NCBI GenBank assembly: GCA_000004985.1
Contig: GG739113.1
DNA length: 7,723 nt
From: Naegleria gruberi
Lineage: Eukaryota
Strand: one strand, 5' to 3'
The notes under the pieces were generated by a model. It saw only the letters and a program-made list of their open reading frames with translations. It was not told the origin of the DNA and did not search any database. A program made the translations under genes and the position numbers. Positions 2-7,723 of this stretch are shown here, piece after piece. Numbering within the stretch: the stretch's first letter is position 1; each line of letters starts with the position of its first letter.

Positions 2-250
2 ACCACAAGACCAATTTCTATTGAAACTCCTGAAAAGCCTCCTCCACCAATGTTCAGTATTGATAGAAAGAAGTACTTGTGCAATTTATACATTAGAAAA
101 TACGATCAAGAATTGTTGACCCAAGTCAGGGAAGGTCATTTCGATAAAGATGACTTTTGGGAAACAATCCTTCCAAAGAGAGGACAGATTGAAGATACAT
201 TCTACAAATCAATTATGCAATATTTTTATGTGGATACAAATGTCGACTAA
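2..250 (+). CDS. 3' end (about 82 C-terminal codons) of a protein-coding gene whose 5' part lies upstream of the window; product not recognised
   Basis: The frame is open from base 2 (TTRPISIETPEKPPPPMFSIDRKK...) to TAA at 248-250 with no in-frame stop upstream, so the ATG at 50 is probably an internal Met. Composition is protein-like (mixed charged and aromatic residues), and an AT-rich 3' flank follows. Confidence 0.5.
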   Translation, partial: TTRPISIETPEKPPPPMFSIDRKKYLCNLYIRKYDQELLTQVREGHFDKDDFWETILPKRGQIEDTFYKSIMQYFYVDTNVD

Positions 251-518: not shown

Positions 519-1019
519 ATGAATAAGCCACAAAAGAGAAACAAATTGCAAGAAATTTTAAAAGCGTGCGAAATACTTCAAGACGACTCGGATAAGATCC
601 AATTGGTGGTCGAATACATCACCAAACAATTATATATCAATGTGAAGAAAACACAATATCCGTCGATTGAAAAAGAGGACACCTTAAAGTTCTTATTTGC
701 TCTAAACATTACACCAAAAGAAACTCATCCACTTCCCATATGTGAATCCACCTTAGATATTCTTGTGGATTGCTACTACCAATTTATAGATACCGATAGC
801 ATCAAAGATTTATCAGAATCATTCGAAAAGGCAGCAAAACACCTTTCCGAGAGTACGAAACAAAGAGTTCGGGCTCATCACATATTTTCATTAGTATCAA
901 GTTTGCAAAGATTAGATTCAATGCAAAGAAAAGATCTGGGTGAAATAGTCGTTTCCAGTGCCATTTCTTCTTTACTAGATGTCATTTGTTGCATTAAGGG
1001 CCACGTTCAAAATGGGTAA
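519..1019 (+). CDS. hypothetical protein, 166 aa as a single ORF; possibly only exon 1 of a longer gene (exon 1 would end at 1015)
   Basis: The ATG at 519 is in an A-rich context (AAAAAAATGAAT, A at -3). It is followed by 166 sense codons of non-repetitive, Leu/Ile/Asp/Ser-rich, probably helical composition, with one in-frame CTG codon (936-938). The stop TAA at 1017-1019 is embedded in GTAAGT (1016-1021). Confidence 0.6.
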   Translation: MNKPQKRNKLQEILKACEILQDDSDKIQLVVEYITKQLYINVKKTQYPSIEKEDTLKFLFALNITPKETHPLPICESTLDILVDCYYQFIDTDSIKDLSESFEKAAKHLSESTKQRVRAHHIFSLVSSLQRLDSMQRKDLGEIVVSSAISSLLDVICCIKGHVQNG

Positions 1020-1150: not shown

Positions 1151-4100
1151 NNNNNNNNNNNNNNNNNNNNNNNNNNNNNNNNNNNNNNNNNNNNNNNNNN
1201 NNNNNNNNNNNNNNNNNNNNNNNNNNNNNNNNNNNNNNNNNNNNNNNNNNNNNNNNNNNNNNNNNNNNNNNNNNNNNNNNNNNNNNNNNNNNNNNNNNNN
1301 NNNNNNNNNNNNNNNNNNNNNNNNNNNNNNNNNNNNNNNNNNNNNNNNNNNNNNNNNNNNNNNNNNNNNNNNNNNNNNNNNNNNNNNNNNNNNNNNNNNN
1401 NNNNNNNNNNNNNNNNNNNNNNNNNNNNNNNNNNNNNNNNNNNNNNNNNNNNNNNNNNNNNNNNNNNNNNNNNNNNNNNNNNNNNNNNNNNNNNNNNNNN
1501 NNNNNNNNNNNNNNNNNNNNNNNNNNNNNNNNNNNNNNNNNNNNNNNNNNNNNNNNNNNNNNNNNNNNNNNNNNNNNNNNNNNNNNNNNNNNNNNNNNNN
1601 NNNNNNNNNNNNNNNNNNNNNNNNNNNNNNNNNNNNNNNNNNNNNNNNNNNNNNNNNNNNNNNNNNNNNNNNNNNNNNNNNNNNNNNNNNNNNNNNNNNN
1701 NNNNNNNNNNNNNNNNNNNNNNNNNNNNNNNNNNNNNNNNNNNNNNNNNNNNNNNNNNNNNNNNNNNNNNNNNNNNNNNNNNNNNNNNNNNNNNNNNNNN
1801 NNNNNNNNNNNNNNNNNNNNNNNNNNNNNNNNNNNNNNNNNNNNNNNNNNNNNNNNNNNNNNNNNNNNNNNNNNNNNNNNNNNNNNNNNNNNNNNNNNNN
1901 NNNNNNNNNNNNNNNNNNNNNNNNNNNNNNNNNNNNNNNNNNNNNNNNNNNNNNNNNNNNNNNNNNNNNNNNNNNNNNNNNNNNNNNNNNNNNNNNNNNN
2001 NNNNNNNNNNNNNNNNNNNNNNNNNNNNNNNNNNNNNNNNNNNNNNNNNNNNNNNNNNNNNNNNNNNNNNNNNNNNNNNNNNNNNNNNNNNNNNNNNNNN
2101 NNNNNNNNNNNNNNNNNNNNNNNNNNNNNNNNNNNNNNNNNNNNNNNNNNNNNNNNNNNNNNNNNNNNNNNNNNNNNNNNNNNNNNNNNNNNNNNNNNNN
2201 NNNNNNNNNNNNNNNNNNNNNNNNNNNNNNNNNNNNNNNNNNNNNNNNNNNNNNNNNNNNNNNNNNNNNNNNNNNNNNNNNNNNNNNNNNNNNNNNNNNN
2301 NNNNNNNNNNNNNNNNNNNNNNNNNNNNNNNNNNNNNNNNNNNNNNNNNNNNNNNNNNNNNNNNNNNNNNNNNNNNNNNNNNNNNNNNNNNNNNNNNNNN
2401 NNNNNNNNNNNNNNNNNNNNNNNNNNNNNNNNNNNNNNNNNNNNNNNNNNNNNNNNNNNNNNNNNNNNNNNNNNNNNNNNNNNNNNNNNNNNNNNNNNNN
2501 NNNNNNNNNNNNNNNNNNNNNNNNNNNNNNNNNNNNNNNNNNNNNNNNNNNNNNNNNNNNNNNNNNNNNNNNNNNNNNNNNNNNNNNNNNNNNNNNNNNN
2601 NNNNNNNNNNNNNNNNNNNNNNNNNNNNNNNNNNNNNNNNNNNNNNNNNNNNNNNNNNNNNNNNNNNNNNNNNNNNNNNNNNNNNNNNNNNNNNNNNNNN
2701 NNNNNNNNNNNNNNNNNNNNNNNNNNNNNNNNNNNNNNNNNNNNNNNNNNNNNNNNNNNNNNNNNNNNNNNNNNNNNNNNNNNNNNNNNNNNNNNNNNNN
2801 NNNNNNNNNNNNNNNNNNNNNNNNNNNNNNNNNNNNNNNNNNNNNNNNNNNNNNNNNNNNNNNNNNNNNNNNNNNNNNNNNNNNNNNNNNNNNNNNNNNN
2901 NNNNNNNNNNNNNNNNNNNNNNNNNNNNNNNNNNNNNNNNNNNNNNNNNNNNNNNNNNNNNNNNNNNNNNNNNNNNNNNNNNNNNNNNNNNNNNNNNNNN
3001 NNNNNNNNNNNNNNNNNNNNNNNNNNNNNNNNNNNNNNNNNNNNNNNNNNNNNNNNNNNNNNNNNNNNNNNNNNNNNNNNNNNNNNNNNNNNNNNNNNNN
3101 NNNNNNNNNNNNNNNNNNNNNNNNNNNNNNNNNNNNNNNNNNNNNNNNNNNNNNNNNNNNNNNNNNNNNNNNNNNNNNNNNNNNNNNNNNNNNNNNNNNN
3201 NNNNNNNNNNNNNNNNNNNNNNNNNNNNNNNNNNNNNNNNNNNNNNNNNNNNNNNNNNNNNNNNNNNNNNNNNNNNNNNNNNNNNNNNNNNNNNNNNNNN
3301 NNNNNNNNNNNNNNNNNNNNNNNNNNNNNNNNNNNNNNNNNNNNNNNNNNNNNNNNNNNNNNNNNNNNNNNNNNNNNNNNNNNNNNNNNNNNNNNNNNNN
3401 NNNNNNNNNNNNNNNNNNNNNNNNNNNNNNNNNNNNNNNNNNNNNNNNNNNNNNNNNNNNNNNNNNNNNNNNNNNNNNNNNNNNNNNNNNNNNNNNNNNN
3501 NNNNNNNNNNNNNNNNNNNNNNNNNNNNNNNNNNNNNNNNNNNNNNNNNNNNNNNNNNNNNNNNNNNNNNNNNNNNNNNNNNNNNNNNNNNNNNNNNNNN
3601 NNNNNNNNNNNNNNNNNNNNNNNNNNNNNNNNNNNNNNNNNNNNNNNNNNNNNNNNNNNNNNNNNNNNNNNNNNNNNNNNNNNNNNNNNNNNNNNNNNNN
3701 NNNNNNNNNNNNNNNNNNNNNNNNNNNNNNNNNNNNNNNNNNNNNNNNNNNNNNNNNNNNNNNNNNNNNNNNNNNNNNNNNNNNNNNNNNNNNNNNNNNN
3801 NNNNNNNNNNNNNNNNNNNNNNNNNNNNNNNNNNNNNNNNNNNNNNNNNNNNNNNNNNNNNNNNNNNNNNNNNNNNNNNNNNNNNNNNNNNNNNNNNNNN
3901 NNNNNNNNNNNNNNNNNNNNNNNNNNNNNNNNNNNNNNNNNNNNNNNNNNNNNNNNNNNNNNNNNNNNNNNNNNNNNNNNNNNNNNNNNNNNNNNNNNNN
4001 NNNNNNNNNNNNNNNNNNNNNNNNNNNNNNNNNNNNNNNNNNNNNNNNNNNNNNNNNNNNNNNNNNNNNNNNNNNNNNNNNNNNNNNNNNNNNNNNNNNN

Positions 4101-6059
4101 NNNNNNNNNNNNNNNNNNNNNNNNNNNNNNNNNNNNNNNNNNNNNNNNNNNNNNNNNNNNNNNNNNNNNNNNNNNNNNNNNNNNNNNNNNNNNNNNNNNN
4201 NNNNNNNNNNNNNNNNNNNNNNNNNNNNNNNNNNNNNNNNNNNNNNNNNNNNNNNNNNNNNNNNNNNNNNNNNNNNNNNNNNNNNNNNNNNNNNNNNNNN
4301 NNNNNNNNNNNNNNNNNNNNNNNNNNNNNNNNNNNNNNNNNNNNNNNNNNNNNNNNNNNNNNNNNNNNNNNNNNNNNNNNNNNNNNNNNNNNNNNNNNNN
4401 NNNNNNNNNNNNNNNNNNNNNNNNNNNNNNNNNNNNNNNNNNNNNNNNNNNNNNNNNNNNNNNNNNNNNNNNNNNNNNNNNNNNNNNNNNNNNNNNNNNN
4501 NNNNNNNNNNNNNNNNNNNNNNNNNNNNNNNNNNNNNNNNNNNNNNNNNNNNNNNNNNNNNNNNNNNNNNNNNNNNNNNNNNNNNNNNNNNNNNNNNNNN
4601 NNNNNNNNNNNNNNNNNNNNNNNNNNNNNNNNNNNNNNNNNNNNNNNNNNNNNNNNNNNNNNNNNNNNNNNNNNNNNNNNNNNNNNNNNNNNNNNNNNNN
4701 NNNNNNNNNNNNNNNNNNNNNNNNNNNNNNNNNNNNNNNNNNNNNNNNNNNNNNNNNNNNNNNNNNNNNNNNNNNNNNNNNNNNNNNNNNNNNNNNNNNN
4801 NNNNNNNNNNNNNNNNNNNNNNNNNNNNNNNNNNNNNNNNNNNNNNNNNNNNNNNNNNNNNNNNNNNNNNNNNNNNNNNNNNNNNNNNNNNNNNNNNNNN
4901 NNNNNNNNNNNNNNNNNNNNNNNNNNNNNNNNNNNNNNNNNNNNNNNNNNNNNNNNNNNNNNNNNNNNNNNNNNNNNNNNNNNNNNNNNNNNNNNNNNNN
5001 NNNNNNNNNNNNNNNNNNNNNNNNNNNNNNNNNNNNNNNNNNNNNNNNNNNNNNNNNNNNNNNNNNNNNNNNNNNNNNNNNNNNNNNNNNNNNNNNNNNN
5101 NNNNNNNNNNNNNNNNNNNNNNNNNNNNNNNNNNNNNNNNNNNNNNNNNNNNNNNNNNNNNNNNNNNNNNNNNNNNNNNNNNNNNNNNNNNNNNNNNNNN
5201 NNNNNNNNNNNNNNNNNNNNNNNNNNNNNNNNNNNNNNNNNNNNNNNNNNNNNNNNNNNNNNNNNNNNNNNNNNNNNNNNNNNNNNNNNNNNNNNNNNNN
5301 NNNNNNNNNNNNNNNNNNNNNNNNNNNNNNNNNNNNNNNNNNNNNNNNNNNNNNNNNNNNNNNNNNNNNNNNNNNNNNNNNNNNNNNNNNNNNNNNNNNN
5401 NNNNNNNNNNNNNNNNNNNNNNNNNNNNNNNNNNNNNNNNNNNNNNNNNNNNNNNNNNNNNNNNNNNNNNNNNNNNNNNNNNNNNNNNNNNNNNNNNNNN
5501 NNNNNNNNNNNNNNNNNNNNNNNNNNNNNNNNNNNNNNNNNNNNNNNNNNNNNNNNNNNNNNNNNNNNNNNNNNNNNNNNNNNNNNNNNNNNNNNNNNNN
5601 NNNNNNNNNNNNNNNNNNNNNNNNNNNNNNNNNNNNNNNNNNNNNNNNNNNNNNNNNNNNNNNNNNNNNNNNNNNNNNNNNNNNNNNNNNNNNNNNNNNN
5701 NNNNNNNNNNNNNNNNNNNNNNNNNNNNNNNNNNNNNNNNNNNNNNNNNNNNNNNNNNNNNNNNNNNNNNNNNNNNNNNNNNNNNNNNNNNNNNNNNNNN
5801 NNNNNNNNNNNNNNNNNNNNNNNNNNNNNNNNNNNNNNNNNNNNNNNNNNNNNNNNNNNNNNNNNNNNNNNNNNNNNNNNNNNNNNNNNNNNNNNNNNNN
5901 NNNNNNNNNNNNNNNNNNNNNNNNNNNNNNNNNNNNNNNNNNNNNNNNNNNNNNNNNNNNNNNNNNNNNNNNNNNNNNNNNNNNNNNNNNNNNNNNNNNN
6001 NNNNNNNNNNNNNNNNNNNNNNNNNNNNNNNNNNNNNNNNNNNNNNNNNNNNNNNNNNN
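1151..6059. other. run of 4909 N (scaffold gap of estimated size, or masked sequence); content cannot be assessed
   Basis: Uninterrupted N characters. The three more-than-1600-aa ORFs in the track (1038-6074, 1087-6081, 1115-6136 minus) exist only because N translates to X. Confidence 0.99.
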
Positions 6060-6079
6060 TTTAAAAGAAAATAGTGTCT

Positions 6080-6084
6080 AAAAA
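6080..6084 (-). terminator. T5 run (AAAAA on the plus strand) 11 nt downstream of the tRNA-Gly 3' end; candidate pol III terminator
   Basis: The minus strand reads ...TCGACGCA TCAGCTTATAA TTTTT. Its position and composition fit a pol III terminator of the interrupted tRNA gene. Confidence 0.4.
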
Positions 6085-6095
6085 TTATAAGCTGA

Positions 6096-6115
6096 TGCGT
6101 CGACCGGGAATTGAA
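6096..6115 (-). tRNA. 3' portion of an interrupted tRNA-Gly(GCC): T-loop, 3' half of the T-stem, 3' half of the acceptor stem, and discriminator A
   Basis: The reverse complement is TTCAATT-CCCGG-TCGACGC-A. TCGACGC pairs perfectly with the acceptor 5' half GCGTCGA found at 7484-7490 on the minus strand, and CCCGG pairs with the T-stem CCGGG at 7441-7445 on the minus strand. Confidence 0.8.
6108..6115. repeat. left copy of the 8-bp direct repeat GAATTGAA (target-site duplication in the tRNA T-loop)
   Basis: The identical octamer recurs at 7432-7439. Each copy supplies the same T-loop nucleotides (TTCAATTC) to one tRNA fragment. Confidence 0.75.
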
Positions 6116-6140
6116 ATTTCCTTTTTTGGAATTCATTTAA

Positions 6141-6251
6141 CTTTTAATTTTATGATGAAATTATGAATTTTAATATTATTCATGATGTGAAACATCATGT
6201 TGAATTCTGTTCATTATTTTTAATTCATGATGTGAAACATCATGTTGAATT
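6141..6251 (+). repeat. tandem repeat: three copies of a ~45-bp unit (TTTTTAATTCATGATGTGAAACATCATGTTGAATT). The first copy is shortened. Copies 2 and 3 each carry a perfect hairpin palindrome, CATGATG-TGAAA-CATCATG.
   Basis: Identical 29-mers occur at 6178-6206 and 6223-6251, and a shorter variant at 6141-6171. The palindromes lie at 6181-6199 and 6226-6244 (7-bp stems, 5-nt loop). Confidence 0.7.
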
Positions 6252-6287
6252 ATTAACAAATGTTGTTCTTCAATTTTTAATTGAATG

Positions 6288-6333
6288 TTGGAAATATCGG
6301 AAATATTGGAAAGTTGGAAATAAAAGTTGGAAG
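6288..6333 (+). repeat. degenerate microsatellite of about five or six octamers: TTGGAAAT, TCGGAAAT, TTGGAAAG, TTGGAAAT, TTGGAAG
   Basis: Seen directly in GTTGGAAATATCGGAAATATTGGAAAGTTGGAAATAAAAGTTGGAAG. Confidence 0.6.
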
Positions 6334-6336
6334 TTA

Positions 6337-6377
6337 GGTAACGGGTTTTGGAATTACCTAATGTGGAAATTGAATTC
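6337..6377 (+). repeat. dispersed motif copy B: GGTAACGGGTTTTGGAATTACCTAATGTGGAAATTGAATTC
   Basis: Alignable to copies at 6704-6731 and 7358-7395, and to the tRNA-insertion junction at 6104-6122. The shared core is AACGG(G)-W4-G(R)AATT(M)CC...AAATTGA. Confidence 0.5.
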
Positions 6378-6446
6378 AATTTTGAAATTGAATAAAAGTG
6401 AATTGTTTCAATAAATTTAAAAAACAAGTATTATTTTAAAATTGTA

Positions 6447-6704
6447 TTGAATGATTTAAGTAACACATATTTTGATAAGAATGAAATTATTCAATATAAA
6501 ATTGAAATTATGCCATCAAATATTATTCAACAATATTCTAAACGAAAGTTTCTTGTTAGAAAAGATAGTCAAAAGAACTCAAGATTTATTACATATCAAC
6601 CTGACGCTCAATCACCATCAAAGAAAACAAAGAAGAATAACATTATTGAAAGTGATATTGAAGATTTCGATTGCAATATTAAAGATATTGATGATTGGGT
6701 ATAG
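6447..6704 (+). CDS. doubtful 85-codon ORF (Lys-rich, acidic C-terminus, SPSKKTKK NLS-like patch) inside the insertion
   Basis: ATG to TAG with no stops, which is unlikely by chance in 70% AT DNA. However, the region is purine-rich and a second overlapping 92-codon ORF is open in another frame, so the absence of stops may be compositional. No recognisable domain. Confidence 0.2.
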   Translation: MNDLSNTYFDKNEIIQYKIEIMPSNIIQQYSKRKFLVRKDSQKNSRFITYQPDAQSPSKKTKKNNIIESDIEDFDCNIKDIDDWV

Positions 6705-6731
6705 GGGAACGGAATTTCCTAATTGGGAATG
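6704..6731 (+). repeat. dispersed motif copy A: GGGGAACGGAATTTCCTAATTGGGAATG, which abuts the stop codon of the 85-codon ORF
   Basis: Same family as 6337-6377 and 7358-7395. It also aligns with the junction sequence CCGGGAATTGAAATTTCCTTTTTTGGAATTCAT (6104-6136). Confidence 0.5.
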
Positions 6732-6853
6732 TCATCACACAATAAATTAAATTTATTATTTATTCATTGATGTTCACAAACTGTGAATTAACACATTACA
6801 TGATGAAACAATTCAAACATTTACTCAAACTTTAAACCTTAACATTAACCATC

Positions 6854-6872
6854 GGGTAACGGATTTTAATAC
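6854..6872 (+). repeat. shorter motif copy C: GGGTAACGGATTTTAATAC
   Basis: Shares GGTAACGG plus an A/T tract with copies A, B and D. Weaker than the others. Confidence 0.3.
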
Positions 6873-6890
6873 ATGTACTAGTATGTTGAT

Positions 6891-6904
6891 AATTGGTCGA
6901 CGCA
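6891..6904 (+). pseudogene. tRNA-Gly 3'-end-like fragment in the opposite orientation (AATT-GGTCGACGCA; the CCC of the T-stem is missing), inside the insertion
   Basis: The GC-rich 10-mer GGTCGACGCA is identical to the last 10 nt of the reconstituted tRNA and is preceded by the T-loop AATT. It is very unlikely by chance in an AT-rich context, though no BLAST was possible. Confidence 0.4.
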
Positions 6905-6918
6905 CAGAAATTTAAATA

Positions 6919-7313
6919 CAGCACGTTTACTTCAAATTTGACGCGTTTTTTGAAAGAAAATAAATTATTTAGAAAAAATTTTGTTGTTCTTCTGCTGTCA
7001 AATCCAAAATAAGCATTTCAATAGAACAACACCTAACCACTCGTTCTTACTCATTTCTACATATTTTTGAGAATGCTGCCACCCCAAGGGGTATGTCAAT
7101 GCAAGGATTCATAATTTGAAGTCAGATTTCAAAACTACCTTAATTCCATCGAGAAATTAGCATTTTGTTGAATAAAATATTATCGTTACAGATTCTTTTC
7201 AAATGAAGTTGAGTTTACTTGCCAAATCAAAATTGAAAGATGAAATACTTTAAATTTTAAAAAAAACAATTTTAATTTCCCCAAATCTTGTCAAACTTGA
7301 AGTAAACGTGCTG
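6919..7313. mobile_element. nested 395-bp MITE-like element with 24-bp terminal inverted repeats (CAGCACGTTTACTTCAARTTTGAC, 1 mismatch), flanked on both sides by TA (6917-6918 and 7314-7315); Tc1/mariner-like signature
   Basis: Left terminal inverted repeat at 6919-6942; right terminal inverted repeat at 7290-7313, which is the exact reverse complement apart from one A/G difference. The inverted repeat stops precisely at the TA dinucleotides. The interior is AT-rich and non-coding. Confidence 0.5.
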
Positions 7314-7357
7314 TAAACAGAATTAACAAGAATAAAAGCAAAATCCTACATAGAGTT

Positions 7358-7395
7358 GGAGAACGGGAAATGAAATTCCCACAAATTAAATTGAG
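7358..7395 (+). repeat. dispersed motif copy D: GGAGAACGGGAAATGAAATTCCCACAAATTAAATTGAG, containing the near-palindrome GGGAAATGAAATTCCC
   Basis: It matches 14 of 16 positions of the junction sequence GGGAATTGAAATTTCC (6106-6121) and aligns along its length with copy B. Confidence 0.5.
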
Positions 7396-7431
7396 AAGCA
7401 ACACAATCACAATAATTCATACTATCAAAAT

Positions 7432-7439
7432 GAATTGAA
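7432..7439. repeat. right copy of the 8-bp direct repeat GAATTGAA (target-site duplication)
   Basis: Identical to 6108-6115. This is the point where the tRNA 5' fragment stops matching tRNA sequence (7431 is T where the tRNA requires G on the plus strand). Confidence 0.75.
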
Positions 7440-7490
7440 CCCGGGTCACGGCGATGGCAACGCCGTATTCCACCACTAAACCATCGACGC
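7432..7490 (-). tRNA. 5' portion (about nt 1-61) of the interrupted tRNA-Gly(GCC): acceptor 5' half, D-arm, anticodon arm with GCC anticodon, variable loop, T-stem 5' half and T-loop
   Basis: The reverse complement is GCGTCGATGGTTTAGTGGTGGAATACGGCGTTGCCATCGCCGTGACCCGGGTTCAATTC. The anticodon stem CGGCG/CGCCG is perfect around the loop TTGCCAT (anticodon GCC). An A-box TGGTTTAGTGG is present, and there is an AT-rich TATA-like upstream flank (7491-7540 on the minus strand). Confidence 0.85.
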
Positions 7491-7723
7491 TTCTTAGTCT
7501 ATCAAATATAATAATAATAGATAGTGTAATTTAATAAACTGTCATCAATGAAGTGTGAACCAATGAATGGAACGCCACATTACCAAAAAAAAATATCAAC
7601 CCTAAACGGTGTATTTATCGTTTCAACATGCAGCCAAATTTTTCAACAAGAACAAAAAACAATAATTTATCACCAACAAGAATATAATGAGAATGATAAA
7701 TCAAGTTAATAGTAATAATGAAA

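Follow-up and report, generated by a model that had tools for sequence, protein, structure and literature searches.

DNA transposons of the Dada superfamily, which lack terminal inverted repeats (TIRs), insert inside transfer RNA (tRNA), small nuclear RNA and 5S genes and are flanked by duplications of 6–7 bp (Kojima and Jurka 2013, PMC3706591; PMC8869645). Dada was the first target-specific superfamily among DNA transposons; its members carry subterminal repeats that have counterparts in the gene they target, some of their apparent 8-bp duplications were reinterpreted as 6 bp, and three families from Perkinsus insert in the A box of tRNA genes (PMC3706591). The tRNA-associated retrotransposons of Dictyostelium and yeast insert at a set distance from tRNA genes, on either the upstream or the downstream side (PMC9012585). 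Here we analysed a stretch of Naegleria gruberi DNA that forms a single scaffold of 7,723 bp (GG739113.1; the window, hereafter), in which a non-coding mobile element of 1316 bp splits a tRNA-Gly(GCC) gene in its T-loop. The insertion is made up of these parts:

6096–6115 (read from 6115 to 6096), minus strand: 3' part of tRNA-Gly(GCC), tRNA nt 52–71, which includes the left copy of the duplication
6108–6115, no strand: left copy of the duplication, GAATTGAA
6116–7431: inserted element, 1316 bp, with no recognisable coding capacity
7432–7439, no strand: right copy of the duplication, GAATTGAA
7432–7490 (read from 7490 to 7432), minus strand: 5' part of tRNA-Gly(GCC), tRNA nt 1–59 (A box, anticodon arm, 5' T stem and T-loop)

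When positions 6116–7431 and one copy of GAATTGAA were removed, so that 6096–6115 was joined to 7440–7490, a 71-nt tRNA-Gly(GCC) was obtained on the minus strand. It forms a perfect cloverleaf, in which the acceptor, anticodon and T stems are all perfect, and a T5 run lies 14 nt downstream of it. On the tRNA strand, the duplicated octamer reads TTCAATTC and consists of the 7-nt T-loop (nt 52–58) plus the stem base C59, within a T-arm that reads CCGGGTTCAATTCCCGG. The boundaries of the duplication are fixed, with no shift possible. The insertion and its 8-bp duplication had been proposed, with the correct coordinates, in a first-pass annotation made from the sequence, and the exact restoration of the tRNA gene bears this out. 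The segment is therefore a real insertion of a mobile element, and the exact duplication together with the exact restoration of the target points to integration at a staggered break. The element would have entered one copy of tRNA-Gly(GCC), and gap repair would have duplicated the T-loop and one stem base. Because the duplication is perfect and the tRNA halves are unmutated, the insertion appears to be recent.

The interrupted gene is also an annotation trap. On the intact window, ARAGORN called a 72-nt "tRNA-Gly" at 7420–7491 (minus strand), in which the 3' strands of the T stem and acceptor stem are supplied by the element, so that most of their bases do not pair properly; the Rfam scan of the intact window showed no tRNA. 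This copy is inactivated: the genuine 3' halves of its T stem and acceptor stem now lie 1.3 kb away, and neither stem can form. Its A box is still present, as are 10 of 11 positions of the B box, with which RNA polymerase III initiation could still take place. Just past the junction, the tRNA strand reads ATTTTG, and the TTTT directly after the junction is a possible RNA polymerase III stop.

A new observation concerns the sequence context of the junction. The pentamer A[AC]CGG occurs only five times in 6060–7500, always on the plus strand, and each occurrence lies in one member of a motif family:

6103–6132, plus strand: M0, left junction, ACCGG-GAATTGAA-ATTTCCTTTTTTGGAAT, with its first 13 nt from the tRNA T-arm
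6340–6369, plus strand: M1, AACGG-GTTTTGGA-ATTACCTAATGTGGAAA, a hairpin with an 8-bp stem (z -2.6)
6704–6730, plus strand: M2, GGGGAACGGAATTTCCTAATTGGGAAT (aligned as GGGGAACGGA-ATTTCCTAATTGGGAAT), 74% identical to the junction copy
6858–6870, plus strand: M3, partial, AACGG-ATTTTAAT
7361–7380, plus strand: M4, GAACGG-GAAATGAA-ATTCCC, closest to the left junction among the internal copies and 51 bp away from the right end

Within the element, AACGG is present four times on the plus strand and not at all on the minus strand (dinucleotide-shuffle mean 0.56, P ~0.001), and the pattern A[AC]CGG-N8-ATTNCC is found twice, and in none of 1000 shuffles. The 20-nt left junction, GACCGGGAATTGAAATTTCC, matched 7361–7380 at 17 of 20 positions; none of 500 shuffles reached 17, the shuffle maximum being 15. 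A similar result was obtained with the 14 nt of the junction that come from the tRNA flank and the duplication and include no base of the element, which matched 7361–7374 at 12 of 14 positions (P = 0.008). Both the junction and the flank-only matches exceed the shuffles, and the tRNA T-arm at the left junction thus completes a copy of a motif already internal to the element. The effect of the motif family is well beyond shuffles despite its post hoc definition, and the tRNA-arm-like motifs that had been noticed at first are in this sense more than chance.

With a GC content of 26.6%, as compared with 32–34% in its flanks, the element begins with ATTTCC and ends with CAAAAT (...CTATCAAAAT). The first-pass annotation had described it as AT-rich and non-coding, with no open reading frame (ORF) longer than 92 codons, no long terminal repeats (LTRs), no TG...CA termini, no poly-A tail on either strand, weak terminal inverted similarity and no canonical hAT terminal sequence, and this description was upheld throughout. 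Neither LTRs nor other long terminal direct repeats were found in the insert, and neither were TG...CA ends, an A-tail on either strand or a simple-repeat tail. The first 25 nt agreed with the reverse complement of the last 25 at 14 of 25 positions (P ~0.014–0.027), which is a weak similarity, a little more than the background level of the element itself but nowhere near a clear TIR, and no inverted pairs were found at the termini. The motif GGGAAATGAAATTCCC reported near the right end is present, at 7365–7380 instead of 7366–7381. The longest ORF with a start codon encodes 92 aa. When the stop-free translations of at least 25 aa from all six frames were joined and compared with 5.8 billion proteins, no match was obtained at E<=0.1, and nothing in a Pfam scan of the same translations came near threshold.

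As had been proposed, the element is also internally repetitive, and it hosts a miniature inverted-repeat transposable element (MITE):

6176–6265, plus strand: two 45-bp units, 35/45 identical, each with the perfect hairpin CATGATGTGAAACATCATG
6287–6335, plus strand: run of degenerate TTGGAAAT units
6919–7313: nested Tc1/mariner-type MITE, 395 bp, with TA at 6917–6918 and 7314–7315

The "tandem 45-mers" of the earlier description proved to be two units with a 29-nt exact core, found at 6178–6206 and 6223–6251; each core holds one hairpin copy, and the two copies are 45 bp apart. For the region 6176–6265, folding as single-stranded DNA was predicted at -15 kcal/mol (z = -3.56 vs shuffles), and the CATGATGTGAAACATCATG hairpins may be binding sites or replication hairpins. 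The microsatellite that had been mentioned does exist but is short, with a 9-nt period and 2.6 copies at 6290–6312. GGAAAT, which is the opening hexamer of the element (ATTTCC) in reverse complement, occurs five times (P ~0.001). The nested MITE is real, showing both the TA duplication and the TIRs that characterise Tc1/mariner-type elements; its terminal arms match at 26 of 27 positions and its TIR starts CAGCACGTTTACTTCAA (CAGCACG...). Without the MITE, the host element measures 921 bp. An old composite element, as first suggested, would fit the degenerate repeats and the nested MITE, although this particular insertion appears to be recent, as described above.

Taken together, we favour a non-autonomous DNA transposon as the identity of this element, with a probability of about 0.5. 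A DNA transposon is preferred because there is no tail, there are no LTRs and there is no remnant of a reverse transcriptase, and a non-autonomous one because coding capacity is absent; the copy would be an internally deleted or degenerate, non-coding class II element. We infer that it was moved in trans by a transposase making 8-bp staggered cuts. The ~30-nt "CGGGWWWYGRA-ATTTCCTAATKKGGAAT" family, the GGAAAT runs and the two perfect hairpins would be likely protein-binding sites, and by analogy the strand-biased motifs and hairpin repeats resemble the protein-binding repeats of many DNA transposons. The first half of this ~30-nt motif is matched by the T-arm, which suggests that one and the same protein reads both the motif of the element and the T-arm-like target; this would give the transposon a preference for T-loops. 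Such targeting is suggested by one insertion together with the near-copies, inside the element, of its own tRNA junction. A more specific proposal, for now tentative and on balance unlikely, is that of a new TIR-less family in Heterolobosea that integrates specifically into tRNA T-loops. The integrating protein would then read a T-arm-like sequence (CGGG-loop) that is also part of the repeated motif, and by this "target mimicry" each insertion would rebuild a copy of the motif at the left junction.

Several observations weigh against a DNA transposon with this preference. One copy was seen, within this scaffold, which is too few to demonstrate a family. The element lacks a convincing TIR as well as any of the known terminal signatures, its ends being unlike hAT YARNG, MULE, Merlin or P ends, and no transposase or autonomous partner was identified in the translations of the insert or with a profile of the Dada transposase. 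An 8-bp direct repeat would also fit target-primed reverse transcription or the crossover region of a recombinase. As for the motif family, all internal copies have one orientation and are spread along the element, and are not inverted at its two ends; the right end (...CTATCAAAAT) is devoid of the motif, and the patterns were defined after the sequence had been viewed, so that their P values are optimistic.

The alternative that survives best is an ordinary non-autonomous element (e.g., diverged hAT-, P- or MULE-like) that has no target specificity and struck the tRNA gene by chance. We regard it as rather unlikely; it is counted inside the probability given for a DNA transposon, from which it differs on target preference alone. 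The likeness between the T-arm and the internal repeats would then be coincidental, helped by an AT-rich, GGAA/TTCC-rich composition. This would agree with the generic nature of an 8-bp duplication, which is shared by several superfamilies, with the single insertion observed, and with the ascertainment bias of a locus chosen for its odd look. Gapped alignments between the tRNA and the element did not rise above the shuffle null either, and the score of the 10-mer GGTCGACGCA (6895–6904) was reached by 8% of shuffles. A chance strike does not explain, however, why the ungapped junction (17/20) and flank-only (12/14) matches exceed shuffles, why the duplicated 8 bp coincide with the T-loop, or why the ACCGG-N8-ATTNCC spacing is repeated twice within the element.

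The coincidence with the T-loop is also what would be expected if a site-specific recombinase of the tyrosine type had integrated a circular element, as in Cryptons and in prokaryotic elements that integrate into tRNA genes, although we consider this improbable. Integrases that target tRNA loops use the geometry of a loop between inverted stems, and the present repeat, the 7-nt T-loop plus one base, is flanked by the inverted T stems. It has the size of a crossover region, and would be one instead of a repair duplication, with the symmetric T stems acting as recombinase-binding arms. The element resembles Cryptons and prokaryotic tRNA-integrating elements in having a short direct repeat at both ends and no TIRs, and GAACGG-GAAATGAA-ATTCCC at 7361–7380 looks like an attachment site, the right half of which equals the left end of the element. 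However, an attachment site at that position predicts a right end in ...GAACGG, whereas the actual end is ...CTATCAAAAT. In addition, the tRNA gene is not restored, as it is by classical elements that integrate into tRNA genes, the translations of this copy showed neither a recombinase gene nor a remnant of one, and Cryptons usually show shorter terminal repeats.

Integration by target-primed reverse transcription, of a 5'-truncated non-LTR element or of an RNA resembling a short interspersed nuclear element (SINE) without poly-A, possibly specific for tRNA genes, is likewise quite doubtful. This process also results in short duplications, for which 8 bp would be possible, and before Dada, site-specific insertion into multicopy RNA genes was known only among non-LTR elements (PMC3706591). 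The end of the element on the minus strand is A-rich (...CCAAAAAAGGAAAT), but neither an A-tail nor a simple-repeat tail is present. No remnant of a reverse transcriptase or endonuclease was found in any frame, and no RNA polymerase III head in the form of a tRNA-like head or A and B boxes was seen at either end, the tRNA and Rfam scans of the insert being negative. Finally, it is highly improbable that the segment is not mobile and represents a rearrangement specific to this locus, filler DNA that was captured or an artefact of the assembly, as the scaffold of just 7.7 kb with its 4.9-kb gap and the lack of a demonstrated second copy might suggest, given that a perfect flanking 8-bp duplication with exact tRNA restoration is unexpected from misassembly or filler capture and that the insert itself hosts a bona fide MITE.

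When the non-autonomous DNA transposon is compared with established classes, Dada shows the closest known behaviour, and the element may be regarded as a candidate member only. Dada families insert inside multicopy small-RNA genes, tRNA-Gly among them, each at a family-specific site, and the one copy seen here lies within such a gene, in the T-loop. As in Dada, it lacks TIRs (14/25 similarity and no inverted pair at the termini in the present case), is flanked by a short duplication and carries short repeats resembling the target gene. A composite build is a further likeness, since tandem or composite arrangements have been reported for Dada, and Dada is known from protists (Perkinsus and Monosiga). 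On the other hand, the duplication reads 8 bp here, in one copy, as opposed to 6–7 bp, and the T-loop differs from the Dada tRNA sites that were located, in the A box and at tRNA nt 7. The target-like copies are direct in this element, not inverted, and the target-like copy near the right end is 57 bp from it, not at a distance matching the target.

A profile of the Dada transposase was built from the sequences in the supplement of PMC3706591. In a word-index protein search it retrieved matches from Perkinsus only, and a full-library HMMER search gave 125 matches without organism names, none of which, including ten AT-rich candidates, was attributable to Naegleria. In Perkinsus olseni (JABANN010000560.1, 11024–11091), a tRNA-Gly(TCC) lacks its first six bases and starts at tRNA nt 7. 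The order at this locus is a 5'-truncated Dada-tG-like transposase gene, a CT-rich low-complexity tract and then the tRNA-Gly(TCC), and the fragment lies in a cluster of tRNA-Met, tRNA-Leu and tRNA-Gly genes. Because the fragment begins at nt 7, this one junction (the left one was not seen) fits a Dada-tG-like family that cuts near nt 7, on the D-arm side and not in the T-loop.

Non-autonomous hAT and P elements are comparable in having an 8-bp duplication, the length typical of hAT, and in forming non-coding, internally deleted derivatives with internal short repeats. hAT elements have short TIRs beginning YARNG. The ends of the present element (ATTTCC.../...CAAAAT) are different, a P-like TIR is lacking as well, and the inverted similarity is only 14/25. 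On neither strand does the duplicated octamer conform to nTnnnnAn, and no protein or Pfam match to a hAT transposase or its remnant was obtained in any frame of the insert. The features of an LTR retrotransposon or solo LTR (TG...CA, a 4–6-bp duplication and long terminal repeats) were not found in the insert, nor were those of non-LTR elements or SINEs (an A-rich or simple tail, remnants of reverse transcriptase or endonuclease, and an RNA polymerase III head). Helitrons produce no duplication, insert between A and T and have 5'-TC...CTRR-3' ends, whereas this element has an 8-bp duplication and other ends. TRE5/TRE3 and DGLT-A of Dictyostelium and Ty3 of yeast are comparable in that they, too, take tRNA genes as landmarks, in the compact genome of a protist or of yeast. 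Those elements lie outside tRNA genes, in contrast, and are retroelements with coding capacity or A-tails.

Elements inside multicopy RNA genes are rare outside non-LTR retrotransposons, and insertion within an RNA gene is of interest as a "safe-harbour" strategy in compact genomes and as a model for sequence-specific integration. If a T-loop-specific element of Naegleria were confirmed, it would add a deep-branching lineage of eukaryotes to those that show this behaviour, as well as a new tRNA site, and would represent a second, independent case besides Dada of gene-internal tRNA targeting by a DNA element, this time with an 8-bp duplication. If instead a generic transposon struck by chance, the locus would be an ordinary pseudogenised tRNA copy, of value for annotation alone, as ARAGORN still calls a tRNA there.

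DNA pattern scans were extended to viral, metagenomic and prokaryotic collections. The right-junction 21-mer had one chance match in metagenomes, inside a bacterial ORF, and the M4 20-mer had one match in prokaryotic genomes, in a GC-rich metagenome-assembled genome, where ~1 chance match was estimated from the size of the database. The 29-nt repeat had no match in viral contigs, in which the 17-nt TIR of the MITE had 10 exact matches. A literature search on Naegleria transposons in tRNA genes returned nothing relevant.

Further candidates within the element were considered and rejected. A decayed second tRNA-Gly at 6836–6904 was set aside on account of its gapped alignment to the tRNA, which was at the level of the shuffles, and so was the 10-mer at 6895–6904, which equals the 3' end of the tRNA, given its frequency among shuffles. 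The last 57 bp (7375–7431) might be read as a separate nested insertion flanked by GAAATGAA and GAATTGAA (7/8), but such 8-mers are common here and the reading is speculation. A possible likeness of the internal CATGATG..AAA..AT hairpins, which lie away from the termini, to the TIR of the Drosophila P element was dropped as well.

One frame of the insert is of some note:

6402–6704, plus strand: longest stop-free frame, 100 codons, which contains the 85-aa ORF at 6447–6704

The product of this ORF would have a lysine-rich, then acidic tail, and it has no homologue and no Pfam match in the searches described above. The insert has four stop-free runs of at least 80 codons, a number matched by 0 of 1000 shuffles of this composition. 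Taken by itself, the longest of them is unremarkable (P = 0.09, shuffles). Three-base periodicity was strongest at 6476–6715 (chi-square 18.4, p = 0.005 uncorrected, with ~19 windows tested). The ORF at 6447–6704 could represent an orphan ORF, the remnant or a captured fragment of a gene, or a product of chance.

The insertion is located in the second of two blocks of real sequence, which cover 1–1150 and 6060–7723 (the latter 1,664 bp). Positions 1151–6059 consist of 4,909 N and are presumably a gap in the assembly, across which two short contigs are joined. In the first block, Rfam gave its only match in the window, to the plant small nucleolar RNA R79 at 131–173 (plus strand; 22.6 bits vs a gathering score of 80, E = 0.54), which is below threshold, falls within a coding region and is almost certainly due to chance. 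A coding stretch at 2–250 (plus strand), at the edge of the scaffold, is the C-terminal end of one gene, and an ORF at 519–1016 (plus strand) matches an N. gruberi "predicted protein" with 100% identity across 166 aa; no known domain is on record for either. The latter ORF runs, just before the gap, into GTAAG at 1017, which is probably an intron donor.

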